DNA of 64,000 nucleotides from Hyphomicrobiales bacterium (lineage in GTDB: Bacteria > Pseudomonadota > Alphaproteobacteria > SPJN01), in contig SPJN01000013.1 of assembly GCA_006844605.1 (NCBI GenBank), forward strand, positions 760-64,759, given 5' to 3'. Each line of letters opens with the position of its first letter. Within the stretch, counting starts at the first letter, position 1. The position numbers and the translations under genes were made by a program. This document shows positions 1 to 13,975 of the stretch, in pieces. The notes below the pieces were generated by a model. The model ran no database searches. It was not told the origin of the DNA and saw nothing but the letters and a program-made list of their open reading frames with translations.

Positions 1-159
1 ATAATCGAACTGGTGTGACAGGCCTGTTGTGCCAACATCAATGACAATGGCGGATCCAACAGACTGGTTTCTGGAGAGACGAATGTCGCGCCGATCAAGA
101 TAACGGAGAACTTTATGGCGTGGCTCATGGCCAAAGGGCGGTTTGGTCTGTGTAGTCAT
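1..159 (-). CDS. hypothetical protein; only the 5' part is in the window (the gene runs off the window start)
   Basis: Seen in sequence. Reverse-strand ATG at 159-157 with an AAGGAG Shine-Dalgarno 8 nt upstream (plus-strand 'ggggggctcctt' at 160-171). The frame stays open through all 53 codons down to position 1 (MTTQTKPPFGHEPRHKVLRYLDRRDIRLSRNQ...). It is not in the supplied ORF track because no in-window stop exists. Same strand as the integrase and directly downstream of it. Confidence 0.35.
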   Translation of the reverse strand, partial: MTTQTKPPFGHEPRHKVLRYLDRRDIRLSRNQSVGSAIVIDVGTTGLSHQFDY

Positions 160-295
160 GGGGGGCTCCTTCTTGTTTTATTGTCTGCAAAGATTTCCCT
201 TTGCTAAATCCCAAGTGTTCAGGATCGACCAGATCGTCAAGAGCACTTCTGGGCGAATTGAAAATTTTTGTTCTGCGTTGTGTCTTTAGACATCT

Positions 296-1504
296 TCAGC
301 CTGTGCCGACGTCTTTTGACCCACTCGGATCTATTGGCAGTGCCTGCTCAAATTCCTTGGCAAGCAACCGATCAAAGGCAGATCCGTCTTGGCGGGTTAA
401 GTTGGGCACATAGCGGGAATAGACGTTGAACAGCATTTTTGTGGTCGTATGCCCCATCTGTTTGGCAATCCATTCTGGTGCCTCGCCCGCGGCAAGCCAT
501 AGCGTGGCGGCTGTGTGCCGCATGTGATAGGGACGGCGTTCTCGTAGGCCCAGATGGCGGAGCAGGGGATACCAAACACGCTGGGTGACATTGCGGTTCT
601 GGAGGGGTTGTCCATTCCGGGTGCAGAAAACAAAGTCAGACAGCTCGCCAGTGGCCTTCTTCTGATCCTGCAGGGCATCAAAGACCAATTGGTTCATCTG
701 CACTGCCCGGAATGAGCCATCGGTTTTCGTTGGGACAATTTTTCCCTGCACATAGGCTTGATGAACCAGAACCTCCCGCCGCTCGAAATCTACATTCTTC
801 CAAGGCAGGCCATCGATCTCGCTGGAACGCAATCCGGTGAAGAAGCGTACTGTGAAATAGTTCTTATAATCAGGACGGACCGTATCAATGATCTGCTTCA
901 CCTCAGCCAGGGTAAATGGTTCAACCTCAACCCTTGGTTCCTTTAACGGCTTGATGTTGCGGTAGGGATTGACGAACTCATAACGGTCGGCAGCTTCCGT
1001 TAGCACCATCCTTAAAGGCACCATGATGTGATTAACCCGTGCGGGGCTCAGCGTCTTGCCGGTTACAGGATTAGCGGACGCAATAGCCGCACGAAACTTT
1101 AGAAGGTCGGATTTTTTGATCGCATTAACCGGCAGCTTCCCGAACTGTGGCAACAGATAGAGGTCGAAATTAATATCCATCGTGTCGATATAGGATTGGC
1201 GCCATTCGACTTTCTTTTCAGCACGCCACTCTTCTGCGAATGCTGAAAACAAGGGAACATCCGCACGCATGGCAGCAGCGCGCTGGTCAAGCTTCCGAAA
1301 CTCTTCGGCCTTAGGGCTGTTCGGGAAGTATTTCCCATAGTCGAATCTCCCCAGCACCATCTCCGCTTCCATGCGCTTAACGATACCCTGCAGGCGCCTG
1401 CGGTGCTGTGGTGTGTCGGTGAGGCCGGTCGCTTCACGGCAACGCTGCCTTTTGTATTGGAAGTCGACATGAAGCATATCTCCGCGTTTGGTGATGGATG
1501 CCAT
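296..1504 (-). CDS. int: tyrosine-type site-specific recombinase / phage integrase
   Basis: 402 aa. C-terminal catalytic region typical of tyrosine recombinases (…HMRHTAATLWLAAGEAPEWIAKQMGHTTTKMLFNVYSRYV) with an N-terminal SAM-like/core-binding region. Placed next to a small excisionase-like gene on the same strand. Confidence 0.9.
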   Translation of the reverse strand: MASITKRGDMLHVDFQYKRQRCREATGLTDTPQHRRRLQGIVKRMEAEMVLGRFDYGKYFPNSPKAEEFRKLDQRAAAMRADVPLFSAFAEEWRAEKKVEWRQSYIDTMDINFDLYLLPQFGKLPVNAIKKSDLLKFRAAIASANPVTGKTLSPARVNHIMVPLRMVLTEAADRYEFVNPYRNIKPLKEPRVEVEPFTLAEVKQIIDTVRPDYKNYFTVRFFTGLRSSEIDGLPWKNVDFERREVLVHQAYVQGKIVPTKTDGSFRAVQMNQLVFDALQDQKKATGELSDFVFCTRNGQPLQNRNVTQRVWYPLLRHLGLRERRPYHMRHTAATLWLAAGEAPEWIAKQMGHTTTKMLFNVYSRYVPNLTRQDGSAFDRLLAKEFEQALPIDPSGSKDVGTG

Positions 1505-1514
1505 TGCTCACCCC

Positions 1515-1736
1515 CTAGTGTTGAGAGACAGGCAGCAATGAGGAGCCACCATCGTTCATATCGCTCTCAATCTGCTCCCAAATGTAAAGAATCTTCCGAC
1601 CGCCAAAGGGACGGATGTAGTGAATGCCCTCCAGAAGGACGGAATCTTTGAGGCGTTCACGAATGGTGCGGGGGTCGTACTTAATGAGCGAAGAAAGCTC
1701 TTCTGTCGTGAGGTAGGTGTTTTTCGCTTGCATCAT
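1515..1736 (-). CDS. AlpA/Xis-family DNA-binding excisionase-like protein
   Basis: 73 aa. HTH-like segment 'YLTTEELSSLIKYDPRTIRERL'. Lies 10 bp upstream of int on the same strand, the classic xis-int arrangement. The family call is by resemblance, not by computed search. Confidence 0.55.
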   Translation of the reverse strand: MMQAKNTYLTTEELSSLIKYDPRTIRERLKDSVLLEGIHYIRPFGGRKILYIWEQIESDMNDGGSSLLPVSQH

Positions 1737-1885
1737 CTGGTTATTCCTTTCATTTTGTTACTTCACATGACGACACATCAGGTTGCTGGGCGTTATGTCG
1801 TTCTAAATGACATATAGTATGCATAAGTGTACATGTCAAGGGCGTTTTGTATAAAAAAGAGACTTTATGTCGTTTTGGGTGACGT

Positions 1886-2089
1886 ATGATTAAGTGCCAC
1901 TTGTCCCGGATGATGGGAGAACGGAAGCTAAAGGTGATGGATGTTGCGCGGGAAACGGGCCTCCACCGCAATACTGTGACCTTGCTTTATAAGGAAACCG
2001 CAACACGAGTTGATCTCGAAGCGGTTGATAAGCTTTGTGAGCTTTTTGATTGCGAGGTTGGGGATCTTTTCGAACGGATCACGGATTAA
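1886..2089 (+). CDS. XRE/Cro-family helix-turn-helix transcriptional regulator
   Basis: 67 aa. HTH 'LKVMDVARETGLHRNTVTLLYKE' followed by '...LCELFDCEVGDLFE', typical of small XRE regulators. Divergent from xis-int, so a Cro/CI-like control module for the island is plausible. Confidence 0.6.
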   Translation: MIKCHLSRMMGERKLKVMDVARETGLHRNTVTLLYKETATRVDLEAVDKLCELFDCEVGDLFERITD

Positions 2090-2099
2090 AGGACCAACC

Positions 2100-3005
2100 A
2101 TGATTCCTGATTATCAAAGTTTAATGCTCCCTGTGTTGCAGGAAGGCGCCGAAGAGGAAATTAGCACACGCGATGCCATTGAAAATCTGGCTTCCAAGTA
2201 CGGGTTGTCAGAAGAGGATCGCGAGCAGATGCTGCCTAGCGGTAAACAGCGCACCTTTGATAATCGTGTAAATTGGGCGAAGGGCTACCTGAAGCAGGCT
2301 GGCTTAGTCAGATATACTGATCGCGGTGCCTATGTGGCGACTGATGAGGGGCGAAAAGTTCTCGCTACAAATCCAGAGAGAATCGACAACAAGTTTCTCA
2401 AGCAATACGAAGCCTTTCAAGAATTTCAAAATCGCAAAGGCACTCAAAGCGAAAAAGAAGAGACGCAGGATGGGGTTGATGATGCAATTACCCCGGATGA
2501 AGCGCTTCGCGCAGCGCACCGCAAAATCAATGCGTCACTAGCCGCCGACCTTTTGGGCCGAGTAAGAGAGGCCTCACCGCAATTTTTTGAAGAGCTGATT
2601 GTCGAATTATTGCTTGCGATGGGGTATGGCGGCACTTCAGAAGATGCTGCCCGCGCGTTGGGGCAATCGGGAGATAACGGCGTTGATGGTGTGGTCGATC
2701 AGGACCCTCTTGGCGTTGATCAGGTCTATGTCCAAGCAAAGCGATACGCGGAAACTAATAAAATAGGTTCCGGAGATATTCGCGATTTCTTTGGCGCGCT
2801 CAATCTAAAAAAGGCGCAAAAAGGTATATTCTTCACCACCTCTTCATTTAGTCCGGCGGCGGTTCAAACAGCGAAGGACCTTGGGATGCGGATTGTACTT
2901 ATTGACGGGGCGCAGCTAGCAAAGCTCATGATCAAATATGGAGTTGGGTGTCGGGAAGAGGAAGTTATCAGGCTGATGGGCATTGACGAAGAGTATTTCG
3001 ACTAA
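2100..3005 (+). CDS. mrr: Mrr-family type IV (modification-dependent) restriction endonuclease
   Basis: The track ORF 2010..3005 is trimmed to the ATG at 2100 (MIPDYQSLMLPVLQE…), which matches the usual Mrr N-terminus and follows 'aaaggacc' right after the XRE stop at 2089. N-terminal Mrr_N winged helix. C-terminal Mrr_cat region with 'GVDGVVDQD…VYVQAKRY' (D…QxK catalytic motif) and 'IFFTTSSFS'. Confidence 0.8.
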   Translation: MIPDYQSLMLPVLQEGAEEEISTRDAIENLASKYGLSEEDREQMLPSGKQRTFDNRVNWAKGYLKQAGLVRYTDRGAYVATDEGRKVLATNPERIDNKFLKQYEAFQEFQNRKGTQSEKEETQDGVDDAITPDEALRAAHRKINASLAADLLGRVREASPQFFEELIVELLLAMGYGGTSEDAARALGQSGDNGVDGVVDQDPLGVDQVYVQAKRYAETNKIGSGDIRDFFGALNLKKAQKGIFFTTSSFSPAAVQTAKDLGMRIVLIDGAQLAKLMIKYGVGCREEEVIRLMGIDEEYFD

Positions 3006-3058
3006 AGGGGTATTACCGCTGGTCCCTAGGAATGAATGTGAAATGAAAGAAGAATTCA

Positions 3059-5851
3059 TTGAACGCAGTTGAGATTGAACAAGCAATTACGGAATTGGCG
3101 GAACAGCCCTTTGACGGGCAAGAGTTTCCGTTCGATTTTTTGCGCGCGTTTGGCAATAAAGAAACCACGATCAAGCGCCTGAAAAAGGGTGACTCTAACA
3201 AATCAGACTTGGGTGGGGTGCTGCAACGAAGCCATATCCACATCAAAGTTTGTGAAGAAGGCAAGGTCACCCAAACGCTGGAAGCTTTGAAAGCAAGCCC
3301 CGCAACGACCAAGGCGAAGGCCAAATTTGTTCTTGCCACTGATGGTATTCAGCTAGAGGCGGAATACCTGAATACCGGTGAAACGGTCGCCTGCAATCAT
3401 AATGATTTTCCAGATCATTTTGGTTTCTTCCTGGCGCTTGCCGGTATCACCACTGTTAAGCAAATCCGCGAAAGCTCATTCGACATTAAGGCAACGGGCC
3501 GATTGAACCGGCTTTATATTGAGTTGCTCAAAGACAATCCGGAATGGAGCACGGCTGAACGCAGGCCGGATATGAACCATTTCATGGCGCGGTTGATCTT
3601 TTGCTTCTTTGCCGAAGATACAGACATCTTCCACGGGGATGACCTGTTTACCTCCACCATCGAGCAAATGAGTGCGCGGGATGCGTCTGATACCGATCAT
3701 GTGATTAGCGAAGTCTTTCGTGCCATGAACACGAAAACGGAAGATAGGGAAAAGGCAGGCATTCCCCGCTGGGCCAATGGCTTTCCATACGTGAACGGGG
3801 GGCTGTTTTCCGGTAGTACGGAAACGCCGAAATTTAGCAAGATTGCGCGGTCTTACCTGCTGCATATCGGCAACCTTGATTGGAAGAAGATCAACCCGGA
3901 TATCTTTGGCTCTATGATCCAGGCGGTGGCCGATGATGAAGAACGCGGCCATCTGGGGATGCACTACACCAGTGTGCCGAATATCCTGAAAGTTTTAAAC
4001 CCGCTGTTTTTGGATGATTTGCGGGCCGGGCTTGATGCCGCCGGTGATAGCGCGCAGAAGCTACTAAATCTACGCAAACGTATGGCGAAGATCAGGGTGT
4101 TTGATCCTGCCTGTGGCTCCGGCAACTTTCTGGTCATTGCCTATAAGGAAATGCGAGCCATTGAGGCGGAGATAAACAAGCGTCGTGGGGAAGAACATCT
4201 TAAAACGACTATTCCGCTTACCAACTTTCGCGGCATTGAGGTGCGGGACTTCCCGGCAGAGATAGCACGTCTAGCCCTCATCATCGCGGAATATCAATGC
4301 GATGTGACTTATCGTGGCCAGAAGGAGGCGTTGGCAGAGTTTCTGCCATTGAATAAAGAAAACTGGATCACTTGTGCAAACGCGCTGCGTGTTGATTGGC
4401 TGTCCATCTGTCCGCCCACTGGCACGGGTGTAAAACACTATGCCGATGATTTGTTTCATTCGCCGGTTGATCAGGCCGAGATCGATTTTGAGAACGAGGG
4501 GGGTGAGACCTACATTTGTGGGAACCCGCCATATTTGGGCAGTACATGGCAATCCAAGGAGCAAAAAGAAGATTTAAAGGCTATCTTTGATGGCAAGACC
4601 AAAACCTGGAAGTCATTGGATTATGTTGCTGGATGGGTGATGAAGGCGGCTGAATTTGGCAGACATACCAAATCCGTTTCTGCTTTTGTGACTACAAACT
4701 CAATTTGCCAAGGCCAACAGGTGCCAATTTTGTGGCCTTTAGTCTTTGAGACTGGCCATGAAATTACATTTGCCCACACGTCATTTAAGTGGGCAAATTT
4801 GGCAAGCAAAAACGCTGGTGTAACAGTAGTAGTTGTTGGGATAGGACGAGAATTCGGCGCGAGGCGCCTCCTATATTCCCATGATAACGACAATCATGAA
4901 ACCGTATTAGCAGCAACCAATATCAACGCCTACCTTGTGCCGTCAGGTGGCGTGCTGGTGAAAAAGCAACAACAGCCCATTTCAGACGTTCCACCGATGG
5001 TATTCGGAAACAAACCGGTTGATGGCGGGCATCTGATCCTTTCAAAGAGCGAGATAGGCGAATTGTGTTTGACCGACAACGAGGTCAGAAAATTTGTTAG
5101 GCCATTTCTGGGTTCGGAAGAGTTCATTTCGGGTAAACAGCGGTTTTGCCTATGGATTGATGATGGATGTGTTGATGACTTGTTGAGACATCCAATAGTA
5201 GCGCAGCGTGTTGCTGCTGTTGAGAAGATGAGACTGAACAGCACCAAAGTGGCAACAAATCGCGCAGCGGCGTGGCCCCATCGGTTTGATGAAATACGGC
5301 AAAGGGGGTCGGAAACATCTTTGTTGGTTCCAAGCGTTTCATCTGAAAGCAGACCATATTTGCCAGTTGGCTACGTCCCAGAAGGGACAATAGTTAGCAA
5401 CCTTGCATTCGCCTTGTTTGATGCGCCGCTCTGGGTAACTTCAGTAATTGCTTCACGAACTCATCTGGTGTGGGTGAAAACGGTGTGTGGGCAACTCGAA
5501 ACTCGCATTAGGTACTCCAATACCCTTGGTTGGAACACCTTTCCGTTACCTAAGCTGACCGAGAAAAACAAAGAAGACCTGACACGCTGCGCCGAAGATA
5601 TTTTGCTTGCGCGGGAGGCGCATTTTCCTGCGACCATTGCCGACCTGTATGATCCTGAGAAAATGCCAGAAGATTTGCGCCGGGCGCATGATCGCAATGA
5701 TGAGGTGTTGGAGCGCATCTATATCGGTCGCCGCTTCAAAAATGACACCGAACGCTTGGAAAAGCTTTTTGAGCTTTATACCAAGATGACCGCTAAACTG
5801 GAAACCTGTCGGCAAACGAAAGACAATAAAAAAGGGAAGGCACATGCATGA
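3059..5851 (+). CDS. MmeI-family type IIL/IIG restriction-modification enzyme (N-terminal endonuclease region, gamma-class N6-adenine methyltransferase, C-terminal target-recognition domain)
   Basis: 930 aa, TTG start at 3059. From memory it aligns along the whole length with MmeI (919 aa): 'LIFCFFAEDTDIF', 'FPYVNGGLF', 'FDPACGSGNFLV' (motif I), 'FRGIEVRDFPAEIARLALI', 'GNPPYLG' (motif IV) and the C-terminal 'LYDPEKMPEDLRRAH…LFELYTKMT'. In the putative PD-ExK endonuclease segment the sequence is 'ATDGIQLEAEYL' and does not obviously conserve the D…ExK spacing; see findings. Confidence 0.85.
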   Translation: MNAVEIEQAITELAEQPFDGQEFPFDFLRAFGNKETTIKRLKKGDSNKSDLGGVLQRSHIHIKVCEEGKVTQTLEALKASPATTKAKAKFVLATDGIQLEAEYLNTGETVACNHNDFPDHFGFFLALAGITTVKQIRESSFDIKATGRLNRLYIELLKDNPEWSTAERRPDMNHFMARLIFCFFAEDTDIFHGDDLFTSTIEQMSARDASDTDHVISEVFRAMNTKTEDREKAGIPRWANGFPYVNGGLFSGSTETPKFSKIARSYLLHIGNLDWKKINPDIFGSMIQAVADDEERGHLGMHYTSVPNILKVLNPLFLDDLRAGLDAAGDSAQKLLNLRKRMAKIRVFDPACGSGNFLVIAYKEMRAIEAEINKRRGEEHLKTTIPLTNFRGIEVRDFPAEIARLALIIAEYQCDVTYRGQKEALAEFLPLNKENWITCANALRVDWLSICPPTGTGVKHYADDLFHSPVDQAEIDFENEGGETYICGNPPYLGSTWQSKEQKEDLKAIFDGKTKTWKSLDYVAGWVMKAAEFGRHTKSVSAFVTTNSICQGQQVPILWPLVFETGHEITFAHTSFKWANLASKNAGVTVVVVGIGREFGARRLLYSHDNDNHETVLAATNINAYLVPSGGVLVKKQQQPISDVPPMVFGNKPVDGGHLILSKSEIGELCLTDNEVRKFVRPFLGSEEFISGKQRFCLWIDDGCVDDLLRHPIVAQRVAAVEKMRLNSTKVATNRAAAWPHRFDEIRQRGSETSLLVPSVSSESRPYLPVGYVPEGTIVSNLAFALFDAPLWVTSVIASRTHLVWVKTVCGQLETRIRYSNTLGWNTFPLPKLTEKNKEDLTRCAEDILLAREAHFPATIADLYDPEKMPEDLRRAHDRNDEVLERIYIGRRFKNDTERLEKLFELYTKMTAKLETCRQTKDNKKGKAHA

Positions 5852-5873
5852 CAGATGCAAGTGAAAACGCACC

Positions 5874-6818
5874 ATGGTAAAGGCAAGCAGAAATGGACTT
5901 AGGCTCGACGCTGATTTCACTGAGGATACGGTCGGCTTCGCGCTTGAATCGTTCTTGGCGGTGATGAGTTTTCCACGTCAGCGCTTTTCGATAGAGCCGT
6001 TCTCTCGTGCCAAGGAACGGTGGTTGGCCGCTGATGCGCGATTGCACGGTGATGTGCGCGGGTTTTGCCCCATTTATATGCAATTTAAAAGGCCGTCTGC
6101 GTATCCAGATTTTAGTACTGCGAAAATTATTAGGGAAAGAAAGGCGCTGAACCTTCTAACGTCGCCCCATGCCCTCTATTTTGATCTACGCCAGAAACAG
6201 CAACATCATTGGGATTTCCAGCACAATATTCTATTCCGGCTCGGTCAAAGGCTTCGCAGTCGTCAGCTTGGTGATGCCGCCTATGTTTGCCCTTTATTCC
6301 TAGAACGGTCCGCTTACAGATTCCATGTGCACTTGTCCGGACTTTCGCTGTGGCCGCGCTTTTGGAGACATTATCCTTGGGAATATGAAGAAGTTTTAGT
6401 AGGCGATGGCGGCAGGAAGATTCGCTTCGATCGTATCCCTGTGCTGGCGGAACACATAACTGTGCCGCCGCACAAAACGGTTTCAAGCGCCAAGCATCGT
6501 TACAGCTTCACGGAAGCAGGAAATGAACTGTGTTTCCACTCGCCAGAGGCCATTCCTGATGGAGCAACTACTCTCGCTGCATTTTTGGATGCGTTGTCAG
6601 GTCGCTTTCTGGGTGGTGGTGAAAAAATCCGGTCAGAGCAAGCAAACCAAGAACTTCAGGACTTGATGAATGAGGTCTTGGGCGATGGGCGTGAAGTCCC
6701 CCAGTCAATCATCGAGATGGACGCGTCTGACCCCATTGGAAACTGGTTGGCTTGGGGCGATTATTTGCGTCTGGAATTTGGAATAGATCAGTACGCGCTG
6801 GTAAGGTGGGAGGATTAG
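5874..6818 (+). CDS. hypothetical protein; candidate HamA-like (DUF1837-type) partner of the downstream helicase
   Basis: 314 aa. No family recognised from sequence. It starts 22 bp after the MmeI-like gene. Its 3' end carries the 'gggagg' Shine-Dalgarno for the GTG start of the helicase gene 3 bp downstream. It contains a possible nuclease-like 'GDVRGFCPIYMQFKRP' segment. The HamA assignment is inferred from gene order only. Confidence 0.45.
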   Translation: MVKASRNGLRLDADFTEDTVGFALESFLAVMSFPRQRFSIEPFSRAKERWLAADARLHGDVRGFCPIYMQFKRPSAYPDFSTAKIIRERKALNLLTSPHALYFDLRQKQQHHWDFQHNILFRLGQRLRSRQLGDAAYVCPLFLERSAYRFHVHLSGLSLWPRFWRHYPWEYEEVLVGDGGRKIRFDRIPVLAEHITVPPHKTVSSAKHRYSFTEAGNELCFHSPEAIPDGATTLAAFLDALSGRFLGGGEKIRSEQANQELQDLMNEVLGDGREVPQSIIEMDASDPIGNWLAWGDYLRLEFGIDQYALVRWED

Positions 6819-6821
6819 AAA

Positions 6822-8873
6822 GTGAGCAATGCTAAATCAATCCCCTCCGTTTCTGTCACTTACGCCCGCAATGGTAGCTCCAAGCAATCGAATGAGCTCG
6901 GAATGCGGGTTATGCAGGAACGCGCCTATGACCGGCGGGGGGAACAGTATCTGCTGATCAAGTCACCACCGGCATCGGGCAAAAGCCGTGCCTTGATGTT
7001 CATTGCGCTTGATAAGCTAAACAATCAGGGCTTGAAGCAGGCCATCATCGTTGTGCCGGAAAAGTCCATTGGGTCCAGCTTCAACAATGAACCTTTGTCT
7101 GATTTTGGATTTTATTGGGACTGGTCTGTCGAGCCAAAATGGAACCTGTGTAATGCGCCGGGGGAAGAAGGCGGCAAGGTTAAGTCCGTAAAGGCGTTTC
7201 TGGATAGTGATGATCAGGTGCTGGTTTGCACGCACTCCACATTCCGTTTTGCGATAGATAAGTTTGGTGCGGATGTATTTGATGATCGCCTAATTGCCAT
7301 TGATGAATTTCACCATGTCAGCGCAAACCCTGATAACAAGCTGGGCGCGCATTTGGGCGAGTTCATGGCGCGCGATAAAGTTCATATCGTGGCGATGACA
7401 GGCTCATATTTCCGTGGTGATGCTGTGCCGGTGATGGCGGCGGATGATGAATCCCGCTTTGCGACCGTCACCTATACCTATTATGAGCAGCTCAACGGCT
7501 ATGAGCACCTAAAGACGCTCAATATCGGCTATTATTTCTATTCGGGTTCCTATGTGGGCGAGATTTTGAGCGTTCTCGATCCGAGCGAAAAGACCATTGT
7601 GCATATCCCGAACGTGAATTCGCGGGAAAGCACGAAAGACAAGATCAAGGAAGTTGAAGATATCATTGAAGAGCTGGGAGACTGGAAGGGCACGGACCCT
7701 GTTACCGGATTCCATCTCGTCGAAACAGCCGATGGGCGCACATTGCGCATTGCGGATCTTGTGGAAGACGGTGCCAATAAACGCGATAAGGTATCGGCCG
7801 CGCTGAAAGACCCCACGCAAAAAGATAATCGTGATCATGTCGATATCATCATCGCGCTTGGTATGGCGAAAGAAGGGTTTGACTGGATTTGGTGTGAACA
7901 TGCACTAACCGTCGGGTATCGCTCTAGCCTGACAGAAATTATTCAGATCATTGGCCGCGCAACCCGTGATGCGCCGGGCAAGGAAAGCTCGCGCTTTACA
8001 AATTTGATTGCAGAGCCGGATGCCTCTGAAGAAGCGGTAACCGAAGCCGTCAATGATACGCTGAAAGCCATTGCCGCCAGCTTGTTGATGGAGCAGGTGC
8101 TTGCTCCGCGTTTTAACTTTACGCCGAAAGCGACATCCACTGGCCCAACCGAAGGCGTTGATTACGGTGAAGGCGGCTATGATCCTGAAAAGACCAATGT
8201 TGGGTTCTGCGAAGAAACAGGCCAATTCGAGATTGAGATCAACGGCCTTGTCGCTCCAAAAGGTGATGATGCGCAGCGCATTTGTAAGGAAGACTTGAAT
8301 GAAGTGATCACGGCATTCGTGCAGGACAAAACGAATGTTGAGCGTGGTATCTTTGATGAAGAAATGGTGCCCGAAGAACTGACACAGGTTCGTATGGGCC
8401 GTATCATCAAGGACAAATACCCTGAGCTTGATGAAGAAGACCAAGAGGCTGTCCGCCAACATGCGGTGGCCGCCCTCAACCTCGTGCAGGCCGCAGATGG
8501 GAAGATCAAGGAAACCGAAGGTGACGAATTTGGTGGCAGCACCGCATTGATTGATGGGGTGCGTAAGTTCGCGATGGATGTGCGAGACCTCGATATTGAT
8601 TTGATCGATAGGATCAACCCATTTGGCGAGGCCTATTCCATCTTGGCTAAATCGATGAGCGAAGAGAGCCTAAAGCAGGTGGCGGCGGTGATCGCTGCAA
8701 AGCGAACCAAAATCACCCCAGATGAGGCCCGTGATTATGCAATTCGCGCTGTGAAGTTTAAACGTGAACATGGGAGGGTTCCTTCTGTAAGCGCTGCTGA
8801 CCCGTGGGAACAAAAACTAGCTGAAGGTGCTGCAGCTTTTGTGCGGTTCAAGGACGAGGGCCGATATGAGTGA
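6822..8873 (+). CDS. superfamily-2 DExH-box helicase (candidate Hachiman HamB-like)
   Basis: 683 aa. GTG start with a strong Shine-Dalgarno (gggagg). Walker A 'SPPASGKSRAL', motif II 'AIDEFHHV' (DEFH), motif VI 'QIIGRATRD'. A C-terminal ~250 aa acidic extension follows. Confidence 0.8.
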   Translation: MSNAKSIPSVSVTYARNGSSKQSNELGMRVMQERAYDRRGEQYLLIKSPPASGKSRALMFIALDKLNNQGLKQAIIVVPEKSIGSSFNNEPLSDFGFYWDWSVEPKWNLCNAPGEEGGKVKSVKAFLDSDDQVLVCTHSTFRFAIDKFGADVFDDRLIAIDEFHHVSANPDNKLGAHLGEFMARDKVHIVAMTGSYFRGDAVPVMAADDESRFATVTYTYYEQLNGYEHLKTLNIGYYFYSGSYVGEILSVLDPSEKTIVHIPNVNSRESTKDKIKEVEDIIEELGDWKGTDPVTGFHLVETADGRTLRIADLVEDGANKRDKVSAALKDPTQKDNRDHVDIIIALGMAKEGFDWIWCEHALTVGYRSSLTEIIQIIGRATRDAPGKESSRFTNLIAEPDASEEAVTEAVNDTLKAIAASLLMEQVLAPRFNFTPKATSTGPTEGVDYGEGGYDPEKTNVGFCEETGQFEIEINGLVAPKGDDAQRICKEDLNEVITAFVQDKTNVERGIFDEEMVPEELTQVRMGRIIKDKYPELDEEDQEAVRQHAVAALNLVQAADGKIKETEGDEFGGSTALIDGVRKFAMDVRDLDIDLIDRINPFGEAYSILAKSMSEESLKQVAAVIAAKRTKITPDEARDYAIRAVKFKREHGRVPSVSAADPWEQKLAEGAAAFVRFKDEGRYE

Positions 8874-10053
8874 CCCTGACCTAGATGAATTGCGGAGTGA
8901 GTTGGCTGAATTTGCCAAACCTCAAAAGTCGATTAAGAGAACCGCCAAAGAAGAGCGAATCATTTCTGGGTTTGAGGAAATTCAGCGCTTTGTTGATGAG
9001 CACGGTCGTCCGACTGCACATGGCGAGGAGCGAGATATTTTTGAGCGGCTTTATGCAGTTCGTTTGGATCGCATTCGTGAGCAAGCTGAGTGCCGTGAAC
9101 TAGTCGAAGAACTGGATCATCAAGGCCTGCTAGGCGATCAGCCGATTGAAGTGGTAGCAGATGACATTGATGATGAAGCGCTTCTTGCTGAATTAGGTGC
9201 AGAAAGCGAAACATCTGACCTAACTCAATTGAAGCATGTTCGTTCCACGGCTGATCGAAAAGCCGCTGAGGAAATTGCGGATCGAAAGAAGTGTGAGGAT
9301 TTTGAAAAATTCAAACCTTTGTTTGAACGTCTTCGTGATGATCTCGATAAGGGTAGGCGCGAGACAAGGCCAGTTACAAAGGATTCAGGTTTTGTGAAAG
9401 CTGACATTAATGTCGGACAATTTTTTGTTCTTGGCGGCCAGATCGCATATGTTGCTAGCGTAGGCGAGCGGATAAAGGCCCCAAATGGCGATTATGACGC
9501 TCGGCTGCGCGTGATCTATGATAATGAAACTGAAAGCGACCTTCTGCAAAGATCACTTCAGCGGGCGTTATACAAGGACGAAGCGGGAAGGCGTGTTACA
9601 GAAGCAGACGCAGGACCATTGTTTTCCGGTGTAGCGGGTGAGGATGACGAGCAAAGCGGCACAATTTATGTCCTGCGTAGCAAATCGGACCATCCAACAA
9701 TTTCAGCTAATCGTGACCTGATCCACAAAATCGGTGTAACGGGTGGTGACGTGAAGAAGCGGATTGCGAATGCAAAGAATGATGCAACCTACCTTTTGGC
9801 TGATGTGGAGGTTGTGGCGACTTATGAGCTCTACAATATCAATAGAACCAAGCTCGAAAAGTTGATCCACAAGTTTTTTGACACGGCTCGCTTGGACATC
9901 GAGATTAAGGATAGGTTCGGCAATCCAGTTTCACCCCGTGAGTGGTTCATTGTGCCGTTGTTTGTTATCGATGAAATGGTTGATAAGCTGATGGAGGGGG
10001 CATTGGATCAGTGCCAATTTGATCCTACATCCGTTGCGATTAGGGTGAGATAA
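8866..10053 (+). CDS. T5orf172 (MUG113)/GIY-YIG-superfamily domain protein with coiled-coil N-terminus
   Basis: The track ORF 8827..10053 is trimmed to the ATG at 8866 (MSDPDLDEL…), which overlaps the helicase stop (ATGAGTGA) and indicates translational coupling. C-terminal 'GTIYVLRS…IHKIGVTGGDVKKRIAN…EWFIVP' resembles the T5orf172 / GIY-YIG-like fold. The N-terminal half is charged and helical. Confidence 0.55.
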   Translation: MSDPDLDELRSELAEFAKPQKSIKRTAKEERIISGFEEIQRFVDEHGRPTAHGEERDIFERLYAVRLDRIREQAECRELVEELDHQGLLGDQPIEVVADDIDDEALLAELGAESETSDLTQLKHVRSTADRKAAEEIADRKKCEDFEKFKPLFERLRDDLDKGRRETRPVTKDSGFVKADINVGQFFVLGGQIAYVASVGERIKAPNGDYDARLRVIYDNETESDLLQRSLQRALYKDEAGRRVTEADAGPLFSGVAGEDDEQSGTIYVLRSKSDHPTISANRDLIHKIGVTGGDVKKRIANAKNDATYLLADVEVVATYELYNINRTKLEKLIHKFFDTARLDIEIKDRFGNPVSPREWFIVPLFVIDEMVDKLMEGALDQCQFDPTSVAIRVR

Positions 10054-10220
10054 CCAGATTATTTGTTGAAGGATCGGGTGGCAATCTATTTGTGGGTGCG
10101 GATTTCTGTGTTATTCGGCATTTGGGGTGTTGGTCAGTTCAAACAATTCACTAATTGGCTATAAATGTGGTGGTATTTACACTTGAAGCCGGGCCTCATT
10201 TTTTCCATAATGAACTTTCC

Positions 10221-10397
10221 AACTGGTGCTCTTTACGCGTAATGCCTCTGGCATGGTCAGGTGTATAGCTAGACCCAAACTTATTGAGCGGATTATGGCG
10301 CGATAAGGCCAAATTTCCTTATCTAGCGCTCACAGGTTCGCTTATTTAGATAAGGAAATTTGGCCTTATCGCTTACTCTTAGGTATTGAGCCCAGTT
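10221..10397 (+). ncRNA. candidate retron msr-msd non-coding RNA (hypothetical)
   Basis: Intergenic region directly upstream of the effector + RT gene pair. An imperfect inverted repeat, 'aactggtgctc' at 10221-10231 against 'gagcccagtt' at 10388-10397, could serve as the a1/a2 pair (~177 nt apart). The 26-bp perfect hairpin at 10300-10372 inside it would be the msd stem. The boundaries are not proven. Confidence 0.25.
10300..10372. repeat. perfect inverted repeat (26-bp arms, 21-nt loop)
   Basis: 'gcgataaggccaaatttccttatctag' … 'tagataaggaaatttggccttatcgc'. No U-tract follows it. It is flanked by the 8-bp direct repeat 'tattgagc' at 10282-10289 and 10384-10391. Confidence 0.85.
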
Positions 10398-10399
10398 TG

Positions 10400-11353
10400 A
10401 TGACTCTGCAAGATGATGATCCTAGATATAGTATCATCAAAGGCGTTGATTTTTCCAAGTCTAGAATATTATTGGAGCCGCACATCATATTTGTTTGTGG
10501 CGGAGTTGTTGATATTACCGCAACAGAATGGAAGTCGTTGCGTAATCTGTTTATGAACTTGGCTGGGGGGGCGGATACACACGCGGACAGTTTCATGTTA
10601 GCGGAAAATTTTAAGGATTGGCGCGAAGGATACAAAAGTCTGTCAAAATTTGAGGAGGATATTGCTTTCATTTCTTCGCTGGTCGTTCTGTTTCTCGAGA
10701 GCCCCGGTGCATTAGTTGAGCTCGGGTTGTTCTATTCCAGTGGCCAAATTCGGAAGAAGTTATTTGTGGTAGTTCACAATTCCTATCATGATTCAGATTC
10801 ATTTATAAAACTCGGAATACTGGCCCCCTTGGAAGAGGTTAGCCAAGAATTAGTGCGCTCGTATGAGCTGGATCACGAAAATCCATCTGGCATTGATGAG
10901 CAAGCGGTCAAGGAGGTTTTAGATGACGTTTTGAATCAGGTAAACAATACGCCTAAGACTCAAGCGTTTAGTACGGACGATAGAGGACATCAGATATTCT
11001 TTGTCTATCAAATGATCAAAATGTCGGGTGCTCTTACTTTTCAGGAAATTGAAGATTTGATTGCAGAAAGTGAGTTAGAAGTCAAAAAATCTGAGATCAA
11101 GACTGCATTGTTTATTCTCGAAAAGTTTGGATTTGTTAGCAAAACAAAGGAGTCTTCCCAGTTCTTCTATTATGCAAGCAATCAAGAAATGGATCGGGTT
11201 GATCTTCATGTGGAGATTCAAGGGGAGGTCCGTAGTGTTACAGAACTGAAAATTGATCTAGGCCAATATTATCACCAGTTAGCAAAATCGAATGTCACAT
11301 TTAAGAGACGGCTGAAAGTGATGAACAGGCAGGATTCGGGAGAGGTTCAATGA
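10400..11353 (+). CDS. putative retron effector: SLOG/LOG/NDT-like Rossmann N-terminal domain plus C-terminal winged-helix domain
   Basis: The track ORF starts at TTG 10397; ATG 10400 is preferred. 'IIFVCGGVVD' and '…VVLFLESPGALVELGLFYSSG' resemble the LOG/NDT 'GGxG … PGGxGTxxE' signatures. The C-terminus 'FQEIEDLIAESELEVKKSEIKTALFILEKFGFV' looks like a winged helix. The stop overlaps the RT start (ATGA). Confidence 0.5.
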   Translation: MTLQDDDPRYSIIKGVDFSKSRILLEPHIIFVCGGVVDITATEWKSLRNLFMNLAGGADTHADSFMLAENFKDWREGYKSLSKFEEDIAFISSLVVLFLESPGALVELGLFYSSGQIRKKLFVVVHNSYHDSDSFIKLGILAPLEEVSQELVRSYELDHENPSGIDEQAVKEVLDDVLNQVNNTPKTQAFSTDDRGHQIFFVYQMIKMSGALTFQEIEDLIAESELEVKKSEIKTALFILEKFGFVSKTKESSQFFYYASNQEMDRVDLHVEIQGEVRSVTELKIDLGQYYHQLAKSNVTFKRRLKVMNRQDSGEVQ

Positions 11354-12300
11354 AGCCATCCGAACTGTTGCGCAATCAATTCTCTTTGTCATCGAACGAG
11401 TTGCAGCGGTACGTAAATTCGTGCCCTCATAGATACAAAACATACAATATTAGAAAGAGAAATGGTGGCGCACGGGAGATCTCCCAACCTTCTAGGGATT
11501 TAAAGATCGTCCAGAGGTTTCTGATTGATGAGCTGTTGATAGAGAATCTAATGGTTCATAAGGCGGCGACAGCTTATCGAAAGGGCCGGAACATTGTGGA
11601 TAATGCTCGGCCGCATTTAGGCAATCAGTTTCTGCTGAAAATTGATCTTGAGGAATTCTTCCCATCCATCAAAGGAGATGACTTCGAGAAATACCTTTCT
11701 GAGAAATTTCCGATGGAGGAAGCCGAAGTTGCCCTGCTGACTAGAATTTTCTTTAAATCTGATAATGGCGAGCTAAAGCTAAGTATTGGATCGCCTGGTT
11801 CGCCCCTAATTTCGAATGCTCTGATGTTTCGTTTTGATAATGTGATTTCAGATTATGCTGACAGGATGAATGTAGCTTATACGCGCTACTCAGATGATAT
11901 GACGTTCTCAACAAACGAACGAGGGGCTTTATTCGATTGGCCGAAAATGGTTGGAGACGAGCTGGGCAGGTTGGATTATCCCACTCTTAGACTTAACCCT
12001 GACAAAACTGTGTTCTCATCAAAGAAATTCAACCGTCATGTCACAGGTATTACGATTACAAATGAGGGTACTGCTTCGATCGGTAGAGGGCGAAAGCGAG
12101 AGTTGAGATCGAGGCTGTTCAATGTTCAAAATTTGAACGCGGAAGAGCGGCGGCAATTGAGGGGACATATTGCTTTTGCCGCACAGGTGGAGCCAGATTT
12201 TGTGGAAAAACTTGGACAAAAGTACGCTAACGAACTTCAAGCTTTGTCGCGCAGTGATCCTGATAACGTTGATGTAAATCCGTCAAAGAAGGATTCTTGA
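11350..12300 (+). CDS. retron-type reverse transcriptase
   Basis: 316 aa. RT motifs: 'RKRNGGAREISQP' (1), 'FLLKIDLEEFFPSI' (2), 'SIGSPGSPLISNALM' (B-like), 'YTRYSDDMTF' (YxDD). Also the two retron-diagnostic motifs 'NARPH' (NAxxH) and 'HVTGITI' (VTG). Confidence 0.85.
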   Translation: MKPSELLRNQFSLSSNELQRYVNSCPHRYKTYNIRKRNGGAREISQPSRDLKIVQRFLIDELLIENLMVHKAATAYRKGRNIVDNARPHLGNQFLLKIDLEEFFPSIKGDDFEKYLSEKFPMEEAEVALLTRIFFKSDNGELKLSIGSPGSPLISNALMFRFDNVISDYADRMNVAYTRYSDDMTFSTNERGALFDWPKMVGDELGRLDYPTLRLNPDKTVFSSKKFNRHVTGITITNEGTASIGRGRKRELRSRLFNVQNLNAEERRQLRGHIAFAAQVEPDFVEKLGQKYANELQALSRSDPDNVDVNPSKKDS

Positions 12301-12437
12301 TATAGGTCATCTAGGCTATAGGGATTTTGGGTGTTTCAATGTGGCGTAAAGTCTTGGGCACAATATGGACACAAAATGGTCACAGCGCAGTGCAGCCAAA
12401 ATAGCCGTTCTGTAGCCTGTTGATTTCATTGACAAAA

Positions 12438-12514
12438 TGGTGGGCGATACAAGATTTGAACTTGTGACCTCTGCCATGTCAAGGCAGCACTCTAACCAAC
12501 TGAGCTAATCGCCC
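12438..12514 (-). tRNA. tRNA-Val (anticodon GAC)
   Basis: The reverse complement reads GGGCGATTAGCTCAGTTGGTTAGAGTGCTGCCTTGACATGGCAGAGGTCACAAGTTCAAATCTTGTATCGCCCACCA. Cloverleaf: 7-bp acceptor stem, anticodon stem CTGCC/GGCAG with loop TTGACAT (anticodon GAC), T-loop TTCAAAT, and an encoded CCA. Confidence 0.9.
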
Positions 12515-12635
12515 GCACCATTTAGAGACGGCCTTTCTAGTGAAATTCGCGCGGTGCCGCAAGCCTTCATCGCGGAAAAAAGTGCGGCAAAGTTCACCGT
12601 AATTGGCTCCCTTAAAGGGCGTCCCGATCGTTGCC

Positions 12636-12965
12636 CTATAATTTCACCGGTGCGAAATGGGGAAAGGGGCGGTCGCAGCCGGCGACATTGGCCAATGCGG
12701 GAAAGCTGGCGACTTCGCCCATTTTGGCCCACAGGGCCTGCACGCGTTCGTTCGTGTGGGCAGCCGCCGCGGCCTCATCATTGGCCCATTCAAAAATTTC
12801 CAGAAAAGTGCCGTCATCCGCATGAAGCAAAAGCGACGGGCGCGACGTTGCCAGCCCTTCCATTTTTAGTGTCATATGATGTTGCGCAATCAGGTCGCGC
12901 AATGCTTCATGGTTTTTGGGATCGTCCGTGTCGGGCTTATAGGTGGCGATGGTAAAGCGGCTCAT
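12636..12965 (-). CDS. antibiotic-biosynthesis-monooxygenase (ABM)-family / stress-responsive alpha-beta barrel protein
   Basis: 109 aa small barrel-like protein (…TFLEIFEWANDEAAAAAHTNERVQALWAKMGEV). Its start overlaps the upstream gene's stop (ATGA). Confidence 0.5.
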   Translation of the reverse strand: MSRFTIATYKPDTDDPKNHEALRDLIAQHHMTLKMEGLATSRPSLLLHADDGTFLEIFEWANDEAAAAAHTNERVQALWAKMGEVASFPALANVAGCDRPFPHFAPVKL

Positions 12966-13975
12966 CCCTGATAGGCCTCATAGCCGGGAGGCAGCTCGGC
13001 ACCGCGGCGCGGCGTCATCCCGGCGGCACGATAAATGTCGTCAATCACGGCCATGTTCTTCACCCCATCAGCGGGGTCGGTGATCATGGCGGGGCCACCG
13101 TTTAGCCAGCCAACGAAATTCTTCAGCTGTTCTTTATAGCTTGTGGTGCCGGGTACTTTTTCAACGATCTTGTCTGTGTCAGTTTCGATCGTGATCTTGT
13201 GATAAAGCTGCGGCGCAATCGGGTTTGTTACGGTCAGTGCGCCCTTGGTGCCCTCAACATGGGCGAGGCATTTCAGCAGCGGCCACCCGGCCATGGAACA
13301 GATGATGCGTCCGGTGCGGCCATCATCAAAATCAAATTCGGCCCGCATGTGGCGGTCTACATTGTTGCTCATCAACCGTGCTGTGGCACTGCGCACGATT
13401 GGTTCAGCGCGGGCAAGGTGGCGGACGATGTTGATGGTGTAACAGCCCGTGTCCATTGTGGCCCCGCCTGCCAGGTCTTCGCGCCAGCGGATATTGGCCG
13501 GTTCCAACAAGGGCACGCAGAACTGCGCTTCAATATGGGTGACGTCACCGATCTTGCCGCTGTCGATAATCTCCAGCATACGGGCGGCCAGTGGGTGATT
13601 GCGCCAGTGAAAAGCTTCTGCCAGAATTTTGCCGCTACGCTCCGCCGCGTCCTGCATGGCGCGGGCCTCAAGCGCATTACTGGCCAGCGGTTTTTCGCAC
13701 AACACATGCTTGCCCGCCTCCAGCGCCTTGATGGTCCAATAGGCGTGATGGCTGTTGGGCAGGGGGTTATAGATGGCGTCTATGTCAGGGTCGGCCAGCA
13801 GGGCGTCATAACTAGTGTGAACGGTGGCGATCTTGTGCGTCTTGGCATAGGCGCCCGCCCGCTTTGGATCACGCGCCGCAATGGCGGTGATGGCGACCCC
13901 GTCCACTTTGCGGGCGGGGTCCAGCAATGCCGGGGCGGTGATACGTGCCGCCCCCAATACACCCATACGGATCAT
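12962..13975 (-). CDS. Gfo/Idh/MocA-family NAD(P)-dependent oxidoreductase
   Basis: 337 aa. N-terminal Rossmann 'MIRMGVLGAARIT' and 'EKPLASN' motifs typical of the family. Confidence 0.8.
   Translation of the reverse strand: MIRMGVLGAARITAPALLDPARKVDGVAITAIAARDPKRAGAYAKTHKIATVHTSYDALLADPDIDAIYNPLPNSHHAYWTIKALEAGKHVLCEKPLASNALEARAMQDAAERSGKILAEAFHWRNHPLAARMLEIIDSGKIGDVTHIEAQFCVPLLEPANIRWREDLAGGATMDTGCYTINIVRHLARAEPIVRSATARLMSNNVDRHMRAEFDFDDGRTGRIICSMAGWPLLKCLAHVEGTKGALTVTNPIAPQLYHKITIETDTDKIVEKVPGTTSYKEQLKNFVGWLNGGPAMITDPADGVKNMAVIDDIYRAAGMTPRRGAELPPGYEAYQG

Follow-up and report, generated by a model that had tools for sequence, protein, structure and literature searches.

A DnmA/YeeA-type methylase of the MmeI family with a degenerate nuclease domain, and its helicase and YeeC-like partners in a mobile defence island

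The window (the whole stretch of DNA analysed, 64,000 nucleotides) carries an operon in which an MmeI-family methylase precedes genes for a YeeB-like helicase and a YeeC-like protein. We consider it probable, at roughly 60%, that this operon is a three-component, type-I-like restriction-modification system, with DNA cleavage by YeeB/YeeC and the formation of a complex with the methylase as proposals. This reading is based on the loss of the nuclease triad from the methylase, the strict synteny of the partner genes, the intact motifs of their products, the diversification of the target recognition domain (TRD), the location in a defence island, and the literature. The combination of an MmeI-like protein bearing a dead nuclease motif with a helicase was already described in 2009 and is not new biology. 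The identity of the cutter, the avoidance of self-restriction and the role of the degenerate domain are questions of the DnmA/YeeA class that the window lineage could serve to model, and it is a good model for them because its parts are all intact and it is present in at least 581 species genomes from several phyla.

Methylase ORF and domain layout

The methylase is encoded by an ORF with a TTG start, a choice supported by homologs that begin with an identical MNAVEIE sequence. The features located in this ORF are the following:

3059..5851, + strand: DnmA/YeeA-type MmeI-family protein, 930 aa (Pfam, phmmer, PADLOC)
3059..3442, + strand: N-terminal domain (aa 1-128), homolog of the MmeI nuclease domain, without the catalytic triad (hhalign, conservation counts)
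3215..3253, + strand: segment GVLQRSHIHIKVC (aa 53-65), true counterpart of MmeI D70...E80-x-K82 (hhalign, residue counts, AlphaFold2 strands)
3323..3382, + strand: string KFVLATDGIQLEAEYLNTGE (aa 89-108), beta-hairpin aligned with MmeI 109-128 (phmmer, hmmsearch, hhalign, AlphaFold2)
4100..4129, + strand: methyltransferase motif I FDPACGSGNF (aa 348-357), AdoMet binding (sequence; invariant in 30 relatives)
4523..4534, + strand: methyltransferase motif IV NPPY (aa 489-492), catalytic (sequence; invariant in 30 relatives)
4952..5557, + strand: target recognition domain (aa 632-833) (Pfam MmeI_TRD)

Analysis of the protein against Pfam revealed five MmeI domains (MmeI_N, 6e-35; MmeI_hel, 4e-26; MmeI_Mtase, 7e-118; MmeI_TRD, 6e-81; MmeI_C, 5e-19), corresponding to a layout of a degenerate N-terminal domain, a helical spacer, a gamma-class N6-adenine methyltransferase (MTase), a TRD and a C-terminal helical bundle. 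In addition, the PADLOC model REase_MTase_IIG matched with 980 bits, and phmmer aligned the methylase with MmeI (5HR4) at 3e-153, covering aa 88-450 and 485-924. These results confirm the membership in the MmeI family that an earlier note on this DNA had proposed; methyltransferase motifs I and IV, named in the note, can be read in the sequence. The same five-domain architecture is shared with MmeI and with type IIL/IIG enzymes. The alignment starts at about aa 80-88 and runs to the C-terminus, and those enzymes, too, combine a variable TRD with a conserved scaffold. One relative (P0116) bears the NCBI name "DNA methylase subunit YeeA".

Comparison of the relatives showed that the TRD is the sole fast-diverging part of the methylase, with a mean pairwise identity of 0.55 against 0.77-0.83 for the other domains. 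Restriction-modification systems are expected to vary in specificity while keeping their chassis conserved, and this pattern was therefore counted in favor of that reading; diversifying TRDs on a near-constant chassis would also be useful for specificity engineering. The N-terminal domain, in spite of lacking the triad, is conserved like the MTase domain (mean identities of 0.77 and 0.81, respectively).

N-terminal domain

Sequence searches against MmeI with phmmer and hmmsearch gave no alignment reaching into aa 1-80, and a search of representative sequences with the N-terminal 170 aa retrieved members of the same subfamily for all of its best 150 matches, with no bridge to MmeI among them. 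Many of these 150 matches were frameshifted fragments, and alignment A2 was built from clean and diverse matches only. The hhalign comparison of A2 with A3 over the N-terminal region (probability 98.9%, 178 columns) paired MmeI D70 with G53, E80 with K63, and K82 with C65. In a set of 193 unique relatives, Gly occupies position 53 in 185 of them; at position 63, Ala occurs in 98 and Lys in 74, and at position 65 there is Cys in 142 and Ala in 42, so that Gly, Ala/Lys and Cys/Ala stand where MmeI has its catalytic D70/E80/K82. The conserved E51 of MmeI aligns with K42 of the methylase. An AlphaFold2 model of the N-terminal domain (pLDDT 86) placed beta strands at residues 54-56 and 60-64, positions that match the location described for the MmeI residues, where beta-2 begins with D70 and beta-3 closes with E80/K82 (Morgan et al. 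2009, PMC2731913). As judged from the aligned sequences, these data indicate that the methylase has no canonical D...ExK motif and that all three catalytic residues are gone.

The non-canonical character of the nuclease motif suspected in the earlier note was thus borne out, but at another place in the protein. The note had taken KFVLATDGIQLEAEYLNTGE for the PD-ExK region; the string is indeed present, but phmmer, hmmsearch and hhalign alike paired it with MmeI 109-128 (RYVLVCDFQRFRLTDLITKE), about 40 residues downstream of the counterpart of D70/E80/K82. The acidic residues seen there (D95, with E100/E102) are likewise no counterpart of PD-ExK, since hhalign aligned D95 with MmeI D115 and E100/E102 with MmeI R120/T122, and D115 is also invariant among true MmeI enzymes. 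Two candidates for such a motif elsewhere in the domain were considered and rejected. E67-G68-K69, as a displaced ExK, is regarded as accidental: it is found in only 3 of the 193 relatives, and it sits in the loop that follows the strand, opposite MmeI R84-G85-K86 in the alignment. H61-I62-K63, as a variant of ExK, has mostly Ala at position 63, and both hhalign and the strands place E80 at residue 63, not 61.

The structure of the domain was also compared with known folds. Superposition on 5HR4, which the earlier note had suggested, is impossible because residues 1-155, which make up the endonuclease domain, are disordered there (PMC4833311). A Foldseek search of the PDB with the N-terminal model gave nothing below E = 0.01 and leaves the fold class without independent support; its top weak matches were anticodon-binding-like domains of HisRS and PolG2, with TM of about 0.2.

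The high conservation of this domain raises the question of whether the protein could be a type IIL enzyme that acts alone and cuts through a non-canonical active site, built for instance from N47, H61 and D95, none of which varies even among relatives with 40-45% identity; in the AlphaFold2 model, H61 shares a strand with the former ExK positions. We regard this as very improbable. The invariance of D115 in true MmeI means that D95 is not a replacement residue, the strictly conserved partner genes would be needless for a self-sufficient enzyme, and YeeA and MslORFHP, which belong to this class, were expressed in the same way as active MmeI homologs and had no endonuclease activity alone (Morgan et al. 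2009, PMC2731913).

Helicase and YeeC-like partners

Two genes for the partner proteins are located downstream of the methylase:

6822..8873, + strand: YeeB-like SF2 (DExH) helicase, 683 aa (Pfam DEAD and ResIII)
8866..10053, + strand: YeeC-like protein, 395 aa, with a C-terminal T5orf172/MUG113 (GIY-YIG-like) domain (Pfam T5orf172 1e-13, MUG113 2e-14)

Each of the 77 related loci whose flanking sequence is long enough has a helicase homolog downstream of the methylase, and yeeC comes after the helicase gene wherever the contig extends far enough. This constancy implies the partner dependence that the earlier note had proposed on the basis of a directly coupled helicase; the coupling itself is not direct, as a 314-aa ORF (5874-6818) lies between the two genes. 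On the other hand, the first 8 nt of yeeC, ATG included, are also the last 8 nt of the helicase gene in the window, an overlap of the same length is present in 58 of 71 loci, and one of either 8 or 11 nt in 67 of 71, indicating that yeeB and yeeC are translationally coupled to each other.

The partners also appear intact in sequence. SF2 motifs I, II, III and VI are conserved across 72 helicase sequences, with nearly all positions of PPASGKS, DEFHHVS, MTGSYFRGD and QIIGRATRDA retained in at least 97% of them, and the YeeC residues IYVLRS...HKiGVT...P-x-EWF are conserved across 73 sequences. No nuclease domain was recognized by Pfam in the helicase, the nuclease-like domain being on a separate protein, and searches of PDB sequences with the helicase and with YeeC gave no matches. 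All three genes were intact in every subfamily locus examined. The same methylase-helicase-YeeC triad is present in Bradyrhizobium, in marine metagenome-assembled genomes and in a conjugative element; the module as a whole is spread across phyla and is found on plasmids, a conjugative element and a prophage, while the window subfamily is very tightly conserved, mainly proteobacterial and highly mobile.

Assignment to the DnmA/YeeA class

Morgan et al. (2009, PMC2731913) described MmeI homologs devoid of PD-ExK and flanked by a YeeB-like DEAD helicase and a YeeC-like, GIY-YIG-like protein (group 2), as distinct from the bifunctional type IIL/IIG enzymes of group 1, which cut about 18-20 bp from their site. 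The methylase of the window resembles MmeI except in its first ~100 residues, where PD-ExK is lacking, and is accompanied by a YeeB-like helicase and a YeeC-like T5orf172 protein. On this published description of the class, rather than on the B. subtilis sequence, it is assigned to the DnmA/YeeA type (group 2 of Morgan et al. 2009). Gene order and orientation, as well as the gamma-class m6A MTase motifs, are those of other DnmA/YeeA systems, from which the window differs by the extra 314-aa gene between methylase and helicase. Regarding MmeI proper, the similarity covers the MTase, TRD and C-terminal regions, and neither PD-ExK nor a stand-alone gene is found; true MmeI enzymes are self-sufficient cutters without conserved flanking genes, whereas the window class has strict partners. 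A literature search for a named defence system composed of a methylase, a helicase and a T5orf172 protein returned none beyond the DnmA papers.

The characterized member of the class is YeeA/DnmA of B. subtilis, which is active as an m6A methyltransferase on GACGAG sites (Nye et al. 2020, PMC7261158). The dnmA-yeeB-yeeC locus restricted neither plasmid uptake nor three phages and was called a relic (PMC7261158; Fernandez et al. 2023, PMC9973331). Furthermore, phage genomes show no depletion of the DnmA site, and methylation in B. subtilis affects promoter activity (PMC7261158, PMC9973331). These observations would fit an orphan, gene-regulatory adenine methyltransferase in the window as well, with the helicase and T5orf172 genes left as a relic, as was proposed for B. 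subtilis. Such an origin is, in our opinion, quite unlikely for the window operon. All loci examined have the three genes intact, the catalytic motifs are conserved, yeeB and yeeC are coupled by the 8-nt overlap, the TRD diversifies, unlike that of fixed-specificity regulators, and the module has spread across phyla on mobile elements and is located here in a defence island. By contrast, YeeB and YeeC of B. subtilis lack C-terminal stretches, according to the authors (PMC9973331), and in Vibrio crassostreae yeeAB protects against a phage subclade (bioRxiv 10.1101/2021.05.05.442762). The B. subtilis locus thus appears inactive in defence, whereas a defence role is predicted for the operon of the window.

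Proposed mode of action

In a three-component restriction-modification system of this kind, the methylase subunit would recognize an asymmetric site and methylate one adenine in it, thereby protecting the host DNA; with a site that is asymmetric and contiguous, methylation would probably be confined to one strand. On foreign DNA that lacks the methyl mark, the helicase would translocate with ATP and the YeeC-like protein would cut, and the degenerate N-terminal domain of the methylase might conceivably act as a docking or signalling surface for both. The same mechanism was proposed for the group 2 class by Morgan et al. (2009, PMC2731913). The restriction reading is weakened by the failure of the B. 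subtilis locus to restrict plasmids or the three phages, and by the fact that the nuclease role of T5orf172 is a prediction (PMC9973331).

The likeness to type I systems (HsdM/HsdS/HsdR) lies in the distribution of methylation and recognition, on the one hand, and of the SF2 motor and the nuclease, on the other, over separate polypeptides, and in a variable slot within the operon that accommodates accessory genes of the same kinds (RhuM, DUF1016, Abi_2, Fic, GmrSD, HEPN). The differences are that the window has no separate S subunit, the TRD being fused to the methylase, and that the predicted nuclease is a separate GIY-YIG-like protein and not a PD-ExK domain fused to the motor. As neither a separate HsdS nor an HsdR combining PD-ExK with an SF2 motor is found, the resemblance to type I is functional only.

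A different function for the same components would be a non-cleaving exclusion of the BREX or DISARM kind, with the methylase providing the self mark on DNA, the helicase and YeeC blocking replication of unmethylated phage DNA, and the T5orf172 domain being a DNA-binding module. PglX of BREX is likewise a large gamma-class adenine MTase; it methylates a single strand at an asymmetric site and takes part in a partner-dependent defence. Moreover, the methylase shows weak local similarity to PglX and DrmMI models, the function of T5orf172 is predicted only, and methylation of a single strand is hard to square with classical restriction during replication (Morgan et al. 2009, PMC2731913). Nevertheless, this function seems to us rather unlikely. 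The PglX models, within a range of 20-26 bits, stay far under their cut-offs (NCBIfam BREX_1, BREX_2 and BREX_6 MTaseX, 21.6-25.7 bits vs cut-offs of 400-900), matching only the motif-I region (aa 333-412), and the DrmMI models of PADLOC (DISARM class 1) gave partial matches only, the best at 4.5e-28 over aa 465-888. The partner set of BREX is unlike that of the window: in the eight island ORFs scanned with Pfam and PADLOC (296-12300), no PglZ, BrxA, BrxB, BrxC or BrxL was found, nor were the DISARM partners DrmA, DrmB or DrmC/DrmD, and the GIY-YIG-like residues of catalytic type are conserved in YeeC. The analogy with PglX drawn in the earlier note is therefore a loose one.

Defence island and exchange slot

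The operon belongs to a mobile defence island. A type IV enzyme, Mrr, is encoded upstream of it and a retron II-A downstream, the GC content is low, and an integrase and a tRNA-Val lie at the ends of the island. No att-type direct repeats were found in positions 1-13000, and an Rfam scan of the same region detected the tRNA only, with no retron RNA family.

The gene located between the methylase and the helicase is the following:

5874..6818, + strand: 314-aa protein of no assigned function, cargo in the methylase-helicase slot (ORF; no model match)

This protein had no match in Pfam, PADLOC, NCBIfam or PHROG, a profile search of its family against PDB sequences gave nothing informative, and its AlphaFold2 model was unusable (mean pLDDT 43). 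The gene was absent from all 80 related methylase loci. Of the 293 homologs found, some occupy the same slot (loci L009 and L010) and others lie in different contexts (L007 and L011). These data indicate that the 314-aa gene is interchangeable cargo and not a core component.

Cargo of 0.2-7 kb, on the same strand and starting at or overlapping the methylase stop codon, was present at the methylase-helicase junction in 53 of the 77 related loci, and was never seen at the helicase-YeeC junction. About 50 unrelated families were observed across the slot, including RhuM, DUF1016/YhcG, Abi_2, Mrr, Fic, GmrSD, HEPN, zeta toxin, Schlafen-AlbA_2 and PDDEXK_4, along with the PADLOC candidates PDC-S11 and PDC-S67. 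We tentatively propose, with a little less than even confidence, that this junction serves as a slot dedicated to the exchange of accessory defence genes and that the 314-aa protein is a new defence or toxin gene using it. The proposed slot is comparable to the PrrC/RhuM/Abi slot of type I restriction operons, and may be a practical hunting place for new defence genes.

As a minor observation, residues D54...Q70-F71-K72 of the 314-aa protein resemble a PD-QxK motif.

A triad-less MmeI-family methylase

Analysis of the 930-aa protein encoded at 3059-5851 revealed five Pfam domains: MmeI_N (aa 1-159), MmeI_hel (aa 171-250), MmeI_Mtase (aa 326-606), MmeI_TRD (aa 632-833) and MmeI_C (aa 835-914). 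The protein matched the PADLOC type IIG model with 980 bits and MmeI itself (5HR4) at 3e-153 (phmmer), and its motifs I (FDPACGSGNF, aa 348-357) and IV (NPPY, aa 489-492) were complete and invariant among relatives. All these data agree, and therefore the assignment to the MmeI family made in the earlier note is correct. The TTG start is supported by homologs sharing the first residues MNAVEIE. The gene lies among the following features:

296-1504, minus strand: tyrosine integrase, one island end
2010-3005, plus strand: Mrr-type type IV enzyme (Mrr_N and Mrr_cat; PADLOC mREase_IV, 6e-80)
3059-5851, plus strand: MmeI-family methylase, TTG start
5874-6818, plus strand: 314-aa ORF without family match, first gene after the methylase
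6822-8873: SF2 helicase (Pfam DEAD and ResIII)
from 8866 (likely ATG): YeeC-like protein, C-terminal T5orf172/MUG113 domain
10397-12300, plus strand: retron type II-A pair, effector and reverse transcriptase
12438-12514, minus strand: tRNA-Val(GAC), other island end

Public records of five relatives (P0009, P0026, P0087, P0091 and P0102) are named 'lactate dehydrogenase', an evident propagated annotation error.

In MmeI, whose residues 1-207 were checked against the PDB entry, the triad residues D70, E80 and K82 fall within GFVDLFWPGILLIEMKS. The string KFVLATDGIQLEAEYLNTGE, previously taken as the PD-ExK region of the protein studied here, corresponds to aa 89-108 and was aligned with MmeI 109-128 (RYVLVCDFQRFRLTDLITKE) by phmmer, by a 30-sequence profile and by profile-profile comparison; it thus lies some 40 residues C-terminal to the catalytic site. 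Its D95 is equivalent to MmeI D115 and is uninformative on triad loss, since D115 is invariant also in true MmeI-type N-domains.

Because sequence searches against MmeI (phmmer, 30-sequence profile) never reached the first ~80 residues, two N-domain alignments were built, one of 15 diverse relatives of the N-domain studied here (identity down to about 42%) and one of 14 MmeI-type N-domains. They were related at a probability of 98.9% across 178 columns (hhalign), pairing MmeI D70 with G53, E80 with K63 and K82 with C65; the conserved E51 fell opposite K42. A confident AlphaFold2 model covering aa 1-197 (mean pLDDT 86; above 88 for aa 11-120) predicted strands at 54-56 and 60-64, in agreement with Morgan et al. 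2009 (PMC2731913), who located D70 where beta-2 begins and E80/K82 where beta-3 ends. A Foldseek search of this model against the PDB gave no significant match and thus no independent support for retention of the PD-(D/E)xK fold. The nuclease domain is disordered in 5HR4 (PMC4833311), which precludes the superposition suggested in the earlier note. Among 193 unique close relatives, position 53 was Gly in 185 and Ala in 8, position 63 Ala in 98 and Lys in 74, and position 65 Cys in 142 and Ala in 42. The protein's own E67-G68-K69 was rejected as an ExK motif: it occurs in only 3 of the 193 and lies in a loop, opposite MmeI R84-G85-K86. No alignment register of the N-domain against MmeI restored D...ExK. 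Thus, the absence of a canonical site was borne out, its true counterpart being G53/K63/C65 and not the residues first named.

Genomic context

The roughly 12-kb low-GC region between the integrase and tRNA-Val genes is a mobile defence island, with a GC content of 42-51% over 1-12000 vs mostly 53-60% elsewhere in the window. Between 1 and 13000, flanking direct repeats of at least 16 nt were absent; one att site may therefore fall outside the window. A 53-bp gap separates the Mrr-type gene, which encodes a type IV methyl-directed restriction enzyme, from the methylase gene downstream of it. The retron pair comprises a nucleoside deoxyribosyltransferase-like effector (PADLOC NDT_II-A, 6.5e-75) and a reverse transcriptase (RT_II-A, 2.6e-109). 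An Rfam scan detected no retron RNA; the msr-msd RNA would most obviously lie in the 343-bp low-GC spacer upstream of the pair (10054-10396).

Membership in the DnmA/YeeA class

MmeI homologs form two groups: in the first, a PD-ExK motif aligns with D70/E80/K82 and neighbours are not conserved, whereas the second is without PD-ExK, has a different sequence over its first 100 residues and 'invariably' adjoins genes for a YeeB-like DEAD helicase and a YeeC-like protein with a GIY-YIG motif (PMC2731913). The gene studied here shows each defining feature of the second group testable here and lacks the PD-ExK of the MmeI group proper; assignment to PglX, DISARM or type I systems was not supported. 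The locus is a new member of the class described in 2009, and its methylase very probably belongs with DnmA/YeeA. The observation in the earlier note and its interpretation were each partly right; the interest of the locus lies instead in the mechanism of the class and in the cargo slot described below.

Conservation of the module and proposed mechanism

Methylase relatives are encoded in at least 581 genomes (one per species), including those of Alpha-, Beta-, Gamma- and Zetaproteobacteria, Acidobacteria, Verrucomicrobia and Firmicutes, and in 66 plasmid records (identity 60-80%). The three-gene module was found on many Roseobacter-group plasmids (plasmid hits H10-H21), in a Bradyrhizobium prophage-like region with muramidase and phage-type genes nearby (L001-L003), and on a conjugative element, where it adjoins type IV secretion genes (L009-L010). 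The best 80 relatives, whose loci were fetched, keep a steady 65-73% identity across phyla, indicating recent, frequent horizontal transfer.

A helicase homolog lay downstream of the methylase in 77 of 77 loci with enough flank, followed by the T5orf172 gene wherever the contig reached far enough. Of 71 loci, 58 have these two genes overlapping by 8 nt and 9 by 11 nt; ATG 8866, which gives the same 8-nt overlap, is therefore a likelier start than the GTG 8827 of the mechanical ORF call. Conservation among these loci extended to motifs I, II, III and VI of the helicase and to the GIY-YIG-like residues of the YeeC-like protein. Exclusion of DNA without cleavage is an unlikely role for the system.

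Mean pairwise identity was 0.77 for the N-domain and 0.81 for the methyltransferase domain; judging from this conservation, the triad-less N-domain is not in decay. N47, H61 and D95 were invariant, and D50 nearly so, down to relatives at about 42% identity, and these four residues (window 3197-3241 and 3341-3343) may form a partner-binding or signalling site. A stand-alone enzyme with a new active site, for example one built from N47, H61 and D95, is highly improbable beside partners so constant. Only the TRD diverges (mean identity 0.55), as expected where diversifying selection acts on specificity, for instance in restriction systems.

YeeA and MslORFHP, both of the second group, displayed no endonuclease activity, and the altered N-terminal domain was proposed to recruit a separate helicase and nuclease (PMC2731913). 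YeeA, now DnmA, is an m6A methyltransferase of the site GACGAG (PMC7261158). The B. subtilis dnmA locus did not restrict plasmids or three phages (PMC7261158, PMC9973331), as would fit a relic or regulatory methylase, a reading that we consider quite improbable here; in Vibrio crassostreae, yeeAB mediates resistance to one phage subclade (bioRxiv 10.1101/2021.05.05.442762). We favour a three-component restriction mechanism (probability about 0.55-0.6), based on the complete methyltransferase and TRD, the conserved N-domain, two obligatory, coupled partner genes with complete motifs, TRD diversification and the mobile defence context. In this inferred scheme, the methylase subunit would read and methylate an asymmetric site, the N-domain would couple it to the helicase and GIY-YIG-like protein, and these would translocate along unmethylated DNA and cleave it.

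A cargo slot between methylase and helicase

The distance from methylase stop to helicase start was below 100 bp in 24 of the 77 loci and 0.19-7 kb in 53; the equivalent junction in the window is 5852-6821. Cargo genes are mostly on the same strand, the first usually beginning at or overlapping the methylase stop, and form about 50 unrelated clusters, many unannotated. They include RhuM, DUF1016/YhcG PD-ExK, Abi_2, Mrr, Fic, GmrSD, HEPN and zeta toxin families, Schlafen-AlbA_2 with HATPase_c_4, PDDEXK_4, and the PADLOC candidates PDC-S11 and PDC-S67. The same repertoire is known inside type I restriction operons. At one locus (L051) the slot holds a homolog of the Mrr gene that lies upstream of the methylase in the window. 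The helicase-YeeC junction left no space for cargo in 71 loci.

The slot in the window holds the 314-aa gene, whose product had no match in Pfam, PADLOC, NCBIfam or PHROG and belongs to a family of 293 members without annotation. The gene was absent from all 80 species loci; homologs occupy the same slot in L009/L010 (L009 8001-8927), a DUF499 / SIR2-HerA / methylase / SNF2 defence operon or island of Pseudomonas aeruginosa (L007, 8001-8948), and, alone, a position after a relaxase gene on a Rhizobium rhizogenes plasmid (L011, 8001-8939). The AlphaFold2 model of the protein (pLDDT 43) was too low in confidence for use. The invariant D54...Q70-F71-K72 of the family is a candidate PD-QxK motif.
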